This document shows positions 3,448-5,115 of a DNA stretch of 5,115 nucleotides, piece after piece; the stretch's first letter is position 1; each line of letters starts with the position of its first letter. The position numbers and the translations under genes are program-made. The DNA is taken from the IMG/VR virus record IMGVR_UViG_2541047434_000040; one strand, 5' to 3'. This DNA comes from a virus. Lineage: Duplodnaviria > Heunggongvirae > Uroviricota > Caudoviricetes. The notes under the pieces were generated by a model. That model saw only the letters and a program-made list of their open reading frames with translations, made no database searches and was not told the DNA's origin.

Positions 3448-5115
3448 TCAGCTAATCGTGATGCCTGCAGTGGCTTTCTTCATCACCACAACCAGCAAAT
3501 CGCTGATACTTGCTGTGGGATACCAGTTATTTACCAGCCATGCTGACACCGAAAACTCCAGTGTCATGTGACCGTGACCGGCAGGCATATCAATAACACC
3601 ACTGTAAATCAGCGTATTATCCAGCGCGGTACGGTTATAAATTTCAGCACCGTTTTTCCGCACTATCAGACGGCATGAGGAGTAAATATCAGTATGCTCT
3701 TTCTCATGTTTAGCGCCGCTGAATGCCACCGCCGGAATAACAATCTGCCGGTCAAACGGCTGATCGTCATAAACCCTGACGGTAATGGTTCCTGATGGCC
3801 ACCGCTCCGGTGCACGGGAGTCCCGAGGGAAAGCTTTGCCCACTGTTTTGACGAGATCGCCTTCAATCTGGTTCGCGGACAATTTTCCCAGAACCCGACA
3901 GTTCTCGTTAATCGTGACGTTGTTGAGCGTCCCGGAGTTCGCATTCACGTTACCGCTGATATCGGCATTTTTCGCCGTCAGCCGCCCGTCCGGTGTCAGG
4001 GAAAATGCCGGAGGATTACCGCCGCTGGTATGGTGGGAGCCGTCAGATATTTCAGGAACACTTCATTCATAAATATCTGATCGCCCTGACCAACAAACAT
4101 CGGCTTTGTGTTGCCATTCGCAGGATTAATCATCGCAATCCTGTCTGCCGCCAGCAGCACCTGACTCTGCATTCCTGCTGGCGTATTCTCAATACCGGCA
4201 CCGATACCCGCAATATAAAGGCGTCCGTCCTGCATCTGCTGCAGTTTCACGGCCCACATGCTGTTCAGGTTATTATTTGTATCAACCTGAATTTTCTGTA
4301 TCTGCTGGATTGCCGCACTCTGATTTTCCAGTTTTTTATTGACGGTCTGCGTGATTTCATTGCTGACATTCGTAATGGACGTCCTGATTTCAGCCAGGTC
4401 CGGCGCAAGCTGACCGTTATCAATCTGCGTCCACAGCTCCTGGGCCAGATGTGTTTTCCCGATTTCTACCTTTGAAAAAATCCAGGTAACCTTCCGCATC
4501 ATCGCTCGCCCGACCGACAGCCTCCACGAATGCCGATTTGCCAACAGTATTCACACTGCGGATATAAAAATAATAATCATGGCCCGGTTTGATATTGATA
4601 CTGGCAGCTATCCAGTACAGCGCCGAGCCAAGATAGCGGGCTGCGGTTTCAACCTGCCTGATATCCGCAATCCGCTTTTCCGAGAACCAGAACTCAAACT
4701 GTACCGTCGGGTCATAAACGGCAAGATGCGGCGTGGCGGTTATCTGAAAATAGCCCGGCGTCAGCTCAATCCGCGACGGTGCTGCCGGTGCGGCAATCCG
4801 GAAGGTGGTGGTGGCAGGTTCACCCTGCTGGCCATAGCTGTTAATTGCCCTGACTGTCAGGGTGTATTCCCCGAGCGGCAGACCACTGAAACGATGCTCT
4901 GTATCCGCAGTGATGGCGGTGGTCACCAGACGGCTGTCCTGACCGCTTCCACTGGTCAGGCGCAGACTGAAGCGCACGCCCTTCACCACCCGCGGCGTGT
5001 CCCATTTCGCCTGCGCCAGATACTGGCTGTCAGCTGCACTCACCTCCACCGTCAGGTGCTGCACTGTCGGAGGGATGACGCTGTTCAGGGTGCCGCTCTG
5101 GTCGCCGTCAAAGTG
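3448..5115 (-). pseudogene. J: Tail-tip host-specificity protein J, 3' portion (continues beyond the window), interrupted by two frameshifts; intact only if these are sequence errors
   Basis: Three consecutive J-like segments lie in two frames: 4420..5115 ([16 protein letters not shown]...[10 protein letters not shown]), 3996..4544 (...MWAVKLQQMQDGRLYIAGIG...[10 protein letters not shown]) and 3448..4030 ([15 protein letters not shown]...[13 protein letters not shown]...). All are co-linear with lambda J C-terminal sequence from memory. Frame switches at about 4464..4470 and 4027..4035. Confidence 0.8.

Follow-up and report, generated by a model that had tools for sequence, protein, structure and literature searches.

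The tip attachment protein J of phage lambda (1132 aa) ends in a C-terminal receptor-binding domain. Its domain order is the same as in the gene considered here, while its C-terminal receptor-binding sequence has diverged from ours and the lambda gene carries no frameshifts. In Escherichia coli O157:H7, J is multi-copy, with about nine places per complete genome matching a 1668-bp J query. Some J genes of this lineage serve here for comparison. The intact gpJ beside btsS in strain 272 (WP_072643112.1, in NZ_CP018239.1) occupies the same chromosomal site as the gene considered here, in the same J-lom-stf-tfa-dinI-btsS order. In strain Sakai, the J of prophage Sp12 is spread over three CDSs of 391, 709 and 71 aa (ECs_2235, ECs_2234 and ECs_2233; NC_002695.2, 2211417-2218061), and that of VT1-Sakai (Sp15) is annotated as 'truncated protein by a mutation', in a prophage for which multiple morphogenesis defects have been reported (PMC2669165). 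Both are lambda-type genes of O157:H7 prophages with small lesions in finished genomes, at positions other than those described below. Genuine multi-lesion J pseudogenes do exist in the O157:H7 lineage. Furthermore, interaction and recombination among the defective prophages of O157:H7 are known (PMC2669165).

Genomic setting

The window analysed here, a stretch of 5,115 nucleotides of viral DNA (IMG/VR record IMGVR_UViG_2541047434_000040), is an exact substring, in reverse complement, of draft contig AVRF01000038.1 (GCA_000462445.2), within its terminal 5.1 kb. This contig of 80,215 bp ends inside J, 2 bases past the window. On the minus strand, J enters from beyond 5115 and comes down to a stop codon at 3448-3450, forming the end of a lambdoid tail module. 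It is followed on the same strand by a terminator-like hairpin (3403..3429, with a stem-loop at 3429-3410, GGGCGCC-AGAA-atGGCGCCT, and its T-tract), by lom (3379-2780), by a collagen-repeat tail fibre gene (2715-1402) coding for a 437-aa protein with Gly-X-Y repeats, and by a small gene for a tail-fibre C-terminal domain (1400-1131). The plus strand has a DinI-like gene at 515-763. The order J-lom-stf-tfa is directly visible in the window, and syntenic relatives have L, a C40 peptidase and tail assembly genes upstream of J, so that J has its regular place in a tail module that reads L, K-like peptidase, I, J, then lom, stf and tfa. In the closest finished O157:H7 genomes the same order is followed by btsS (yehU), which identifies the window as belonging to a prophage at the yehV/btsS site. 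In strain Sakai this site is occupied by the Stx1 prophage Sp15 / VT1-Sakai (PMC2669165). The junction between prophage and chromosome by btsS (window positions 1-1130) is identical to that of finished O157:H7 strain 272; its counterpart in relatives contains two short remnants annotated as incomplete or frameshifted.

Repetition is a salient feature of this neighbourhood. The 521-bp segment that holds both of the J indels described below has 3-5 places per O157:H7 genome, and it is an expected outcome that AVRF01000038.1 stops inside J, where the assembler met a repeat beyond its resolution. The tail fibre gene (1402-2715) is itself a mosaic: stretches of it match the copy at the btsS site, a nleA-linked copy and a tccP2-linked copy, its best overall identity is 99.0%, and AVRF01000038.1 is the sole record of its exact 437-aa protein. 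This mosaic may come from natural recombination, or from a wrong path taken through collapsed repeats, giving a chimeric assembly.

Two frameshifts in J

Translation in three frames shows that, on the minus strand, the J-like sequence follows one frame to ...GYLDFFKG, continues in another from EIGKTHLAQ..., and then resumes the first as far as the stop at 3448-3450. The initial annotation of this DNA had described the gene in just this way, as a J sequence continuous over three frame segments and interrupted by two single-base indels of opposite sign, and it had proposed alignment to intact J alleles as a check. Translation and alignment bear the description out. Aligned with three intact 3477-bp gpJ genes from the same prophage site and with more distant alleles including that of lambda, the gene has exactly two indels; the intact alleles run continuously through both points, the more distant ones too, and all compared alleles are without the extra base found at 4468.

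The visible in-frame part of J (4469..5115, minus strand) codes for residues about 604-819 of 1158 and comprises two Ig-like domains, the gene continuing past the window. Just past the second of these domains, at site 1, one extra base is present at 4468, an A on the plus strand and a T on the minus strand, where intact GGA GAA has become GGT AGA A. The site is outside any homopolymer, and the frame shifts after Gly819. The sign and position of this insertion had been correctly annotated; its parse as GGT-A-GAA had not, the supernumerary minus-strand base being the T in GG-T-AGAA. As had also been noted, an out-of-frame tail of 15 residues comes next, and with its stop codon at 4420-4422 (the whole at 4420..4467, minus strand) it ends the J product as written. 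Residues 820-965, which comprise the linker and the greater part of the Phage_Tail_Tip domain, are encoded in the shifted frame by 437 nt (4030..4466, minus strand), and this frame, as written, continues for 10 residues more to a stop at 3996-3998. At site 2, within the Phage_Tail_Tip domain, one base is missing from the codon for Ile965 (4029..4031, minus strand), so that intact ATT ACC reads ATA CC in the window. On the plus strand, GGTAATGG in intact alleles corresponds to GGTATGG in the window, with the retained A at 4030. Here again a 1-bp deletion had been placed where it is, while the ATAACC that was expected there does not match the ATT ACC of intact alleles. The original frame is then restored for residues 966-1158 (3448..4029, minus strand, with the stop at 3448-3450), which complete the tail-tip fibre domain and make up the C-terminal receptor-binding domain. 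In the written sequence this stretch is not translated as part of J.

A single open reading frame reaching through the C-terminal receptor-binding domain is therefore not what the window contains, with breaks at 4468 and 4030 and the stop at 4420-4422. The loss as written amounts to 339 aa (residues 820-1158 of 1158), which agrees with the earlier statement that the receptor-binding region is removed and slightly exceeds the ~330 aa then given. When the base at 4468 is removed and the missing one is restored, however, the 1668 nt make one ORF differing at 2 of 555 residues from WP_072643112.1, a result showing that the likeness to J does not come about by chance. The repaired translation has the complete domain series, with Ig_J (PF24421) and Ig_J_second (PF24489) at repaired residues 7-214, Phage_Tail_Tip (PF09327) at 268-396 and Ig_GpJ_C (PF12421) at 425-555, scoring 140, 135, 110 and 129 bits, respectively, against Pfam cut-offs of 22-29 bits. 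It also matches the solved lambda J structures 8iyk and 8xcj (E = 9e-209). The gene is a lambda-type J of the usual kind, belonging to the O157:H7 prophage next to btsS/yehU.

Opposite signs invite the idea of mutual correction. The written frame between the two sites carries many stop codons in the three-frame translation, so that the second indel restores nothing and the opposition of signs is without functional meaning; two random indels are opposite in sign half of the time. Compensating frameshifts that would create a novel functional middle segment are rejected on this account. We also rejected a patch of recombination bounded by both indels: the 437-nt segment and its flanks are of the same allele, with one private SNP inside.

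Over the 1668 bp, the window has 98.9% nucleotide identity with the gpJ of strain 272. It departs from this gene by its two indels (+1 at 4468 and -1 at 4030), by four transitions of its own and by a patch of mosaic sequence at 4765-4948 (minus strand). In that patch differences are clustered, some as in strain 272 and others as in strain F7349, a typical case of mosaicism among the alleles of J copies.

Lesions private to one draft

How far these lesions are shared was explored in 5,426 complete E. coli genomes. At 99% identity or more, the 521-bp segment is found there in about 1,333 records, the best match (99.4%) differing by two gaps and one SNP. Junction queries of 41 and 40 nt were centred on each indel, in such a way that every 28-base word must span the junction; these 28-mers gave zero matches in the complete genomes for site 1 and for site 2. 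The exact junction patterns of both sites are likewise absent elsewhere in IMG/VR and in JGI metagenomes, while the intact junction of each site, used there as a positive control, gave at least 120 matches. The 87-aa fragment proposed by the gene caller at 3996-4259, which carries the tail of the site-2 frameshift, is on record only in AVRF01000038.1, and the 182-aa ORF at 3996-4544 has no exact-match record. Sharing of the lesions by descent among related genomes was looked for in the same 5,426 genomes and not found. Both lesions are private to one draft assembly and do not occur in the finished genomes that carry near-identical copies.

The 166-aa C-terminal ORF of J was considered as a marker of other carriers and had to be discarded. 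It is present in many assemblies, where the frameshifts are at other positions, and its carriers are thus uninformative about the two sites. In most of these assemblies all tail genes are fragmented. In seven loci from the GCA_0456.../GCA_0455... series, nearly all tail genes are split within large contigs, which indicates that the rate of indel errors is high in those assemblies; their contigs have the 166-aa ORF because any upstream frameshift exposes it.

Broken copies of J are found well beyond this contig. Among the IMG/VR J copies that cover the same 1.67 kb, 16 of 144 have internal stops, several of them with two or more shifts. Internal stops were counted here rather than raw gaps against divergent alleles, where alignment noise overcounts frameshifts. 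Frame disruption in J is commonplace, whether by artefact or by real decay. Several IMG/VR loci (L049, L062, L090 and L106) share with Sakai Sp12 J an insertion of 2 bases close to its receptor-binding domain. Many finished genomes share the Sp12-type J sequence at 99.9%, whereas the lesions of the window belong to a single draft contig.

Differences along the contig

Alignment to finished O157:H7 strain 272 reveals three single-base indels in the contig, located 650, 1088 and 1708 bases from its end. Two are those in J. The third, which the initial annotation did not mention, is at +3410: the terminator-like hairpin behind J has a T-tract of 7 bases in the window and of 6 in strain 272. This tract is 6 bases long in 139 other loci, 5 in three (L062 among them) and 7 in one other; as a homopolymer it is variable or prone to error. 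Over the 10.2 kb that follow (after position 3483 of contig locus L014), the contig shows no difference of any kind from strain 272, which has an intact J at this site. By our own calculation, the chance that three indels would all fall in the first 1.7 of 13.7 kb is about 0.002. The indels lie in repeats close to where the contig stops, and elsewhere the assembly is clean.

Four substitutions in J, at 5067, 4292, 3850 and 3826, are private to the contig when compared with about 240 other J-bearing loci. All are transitions, two of them synonymous and two conservative (Ala to Thr and Val to Ile); those at 3826 and 3850, tested together, are absent from all complete genomes. Such changes resemble natural divergence, and the allele itself is therefore probably real, if slightly unusual. 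The J region nevertheless holds three indels against these four private substitutions, and natural divergence usually gives a far lower share of indels.

A second draft with the same deletion

Among the loci taken as positive controls, one (L062, IMGVR_UViG_2534682252_000032) has at 1634-1654 a loss identical to that of site 2, from ATTACC to ATACC. Its allele background is different, with AGT GGC GGC downstream in place of AGC GGC GGT. The J copy of L062 is of the Sakai Sp12 type: 1644 of 1645 positions match many finished O157:H7 genomes, the sole difference being the deletion. The site-2 junction of L062 is absent from all complete genomes, and it is unique in IMG/VR. Set against finished Sakai over 3.26 kb, L062 shows three single-base indels and no more than one substitution, which falls on position 2, right where the locus begins. 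Differences that are almost all single-base indels bear the signature of base-calling error rather than of evolution. The same deletion is thus seen in two unrelated drafts, on two J paralogs and in no finished genome, which favours a context-dependent technical error at site 2. This recurrence in another draft dominated by indels concerns site 2 only, and not site 1.

Draft error or pseudogene

Taken together, the evidence makes it probable that both J frameshifts and the T-tract change at 3410 are draft errors in GCA_000462445.2. The assembler would have run into some nine near-identical gene copies per genome and then stopped, and errors of base calling or consensus would have arisen in the last 1.7 kb of AVRF01000038.1. 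The real gene would be one intact ORF of 1158 aa, with no biological truncation. What speaks for this reading is that the indels are private to one draft, that they form a cluster at a contig end in a multi-copy gene next to a perfect flank, that their share among the differences is high, that the deletion of site 2 recurs, and that the adjacent tail fibre gene mixes paralog alleles into a protein recorded in this contig alone; it is from their observed location, uniqueness and clustering, and from the recurrence of one of them, that we infer a technical origin. Sequencing error, the alternative that the initial annotation had itself named, appears more likely than true inactivation of the gene. 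Some observations do not fit easily with an artefact. The assembly is flawless across the adjacent 10.2 kb, and an allele distinct enough to have four natural-looking substitutions could carry real indels as well. Furthermore, no sampled J allele supplies the T of site 1, which is not in a homopolymer, and a simple consensus of mixed paralogs does not explain that site: a paralog reading GGTAAA would be expected, while the sampled alleles read GGAGAA, GGAGAG, GGCAAG or GAAAAA. At site 2, the candidate for such mixing is a distant allele with ATCACC, a weak lead.

If the lesions were real, the gene would be a strain-private J pseudogene of the prophage at the btsS site, hit by two independent single-base frameshifts: the first truncating J after Gly819, with loss of the tail-tip fibre and receptor-binding domains, the second a later, neutral lesion. 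We regard this as a serious possibility, albeit with less than an even chance. It is in line with the natural look of the four private substitutions, with the broken J genes of finished O157:H7 genomes (Sakai Sp12 and VT1-Sakai), with the frame-disrupted fraction of the IMG/VR copies (16/144 over the same 1.67 kb) and with the multiple morphogenesis defects of Sp15 (PMC2669165). The accurately assembled flank, the opposite signs that restore nothing across a stop-filled stretch, as half of random pairs would, and the insertion at site 1, outside a homopolymer and unexplained by sampled paralogs, can all be read in the same way. By contrast, the lesions are in none of the 5,426 complete genomes, including those of close O157:H7 relatives identical over the 10.2-kb flank. 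Seven private changes in 1.7 kb, with none in the adjoining 10.2 kb, are far above clonal O157:H7 divergence, and would require that the allele, already broken, had been imported from a donor not yet sampled. The share of indels is unusually high, the position is a repeat next to a contig end, and the identical deletion of site 2 in an unrelated, error-like draft points to a technical cause. The same recurrence in two unrelated contigs, on two J paralogs, would be accounted for by a true mutational hotspot, with an ATT-to-AT deletion recurring in different prophages and each time switching off the receptor-binding end of J. Such a hotspot is scarcely credible: more than 1,000 near-identical copies in finished genomes, on either allele background, include no deleted copy, where it should have appeared, the context is a mere TT dinucleotide and no slippage-prone tract, and the other differences of L062 from Sakai are single-base indels too, again pointing to error. 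The version in which the hotspot at Ile965 turns off the receptor-binding end reversibly or repeatedly, the window being one off-state with a second lesion, is very unlikely. Finally, ribosomes might shift by +1 at site 1 and by -1 at site 2 and so produce a full-length J. After site 1 the written frame does enter a rare AGA codon, and pausing at rare codons can favour +1 shifts. Yet both junctions are unique to one contig, and the homologues all read through the two sites without changing frame. Inspection of the letters themselves reveals no slippery motif of the X XXY YYZ type at either site. A recoding signal would moreover be conserved, which is not the case here. The likelihood of programmed recoding would be close to nil, and it may be considered effectively excluded.

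Draft errors remain the preferred explanation, and there is no support for the earlier suggestion of a prophage cryptic for adsorption, the lesions being confined to the repeat-rich 1.7-kb end of one draft contig and present in no finished genome. Were they real, particles with no other J than this one would fail to adsorb. The consequence would be small owing to the intact J copies in the same cell: with several other copies per O157:H7 cell and defective prophages that interact, a broken J need not block the formation or transfer of particles. The window would then simply add one more defective tail gene to the well-described pool of defective O157:H7 prophages. In any case, where a multi-copy prophage gene lies at the end of a draft contig, a frameshift in it should not be equated with prophage decay unless reads support it.

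Comparison with known systems

Close counterparts of these lesions are the single-base indel errors of draft or long-read-only assemblies. As in those, single-base indels that are private have fallen in a multi-copy gene of a prophage, close to where a contig ends. Two features set the window apart: its contig is clean outside the terminal 1.7 kb, and one of the indels is not associated with a homopolymer. Two outcomes are of use, namely the caution about frameshifts at contig ends, and the ATT-to-AT site that recurs in two drafts. As a whole, nothing in the window departs from kinds already known, be it an error of draft assembly or a defective tail gene of an O157:H7 prophage.
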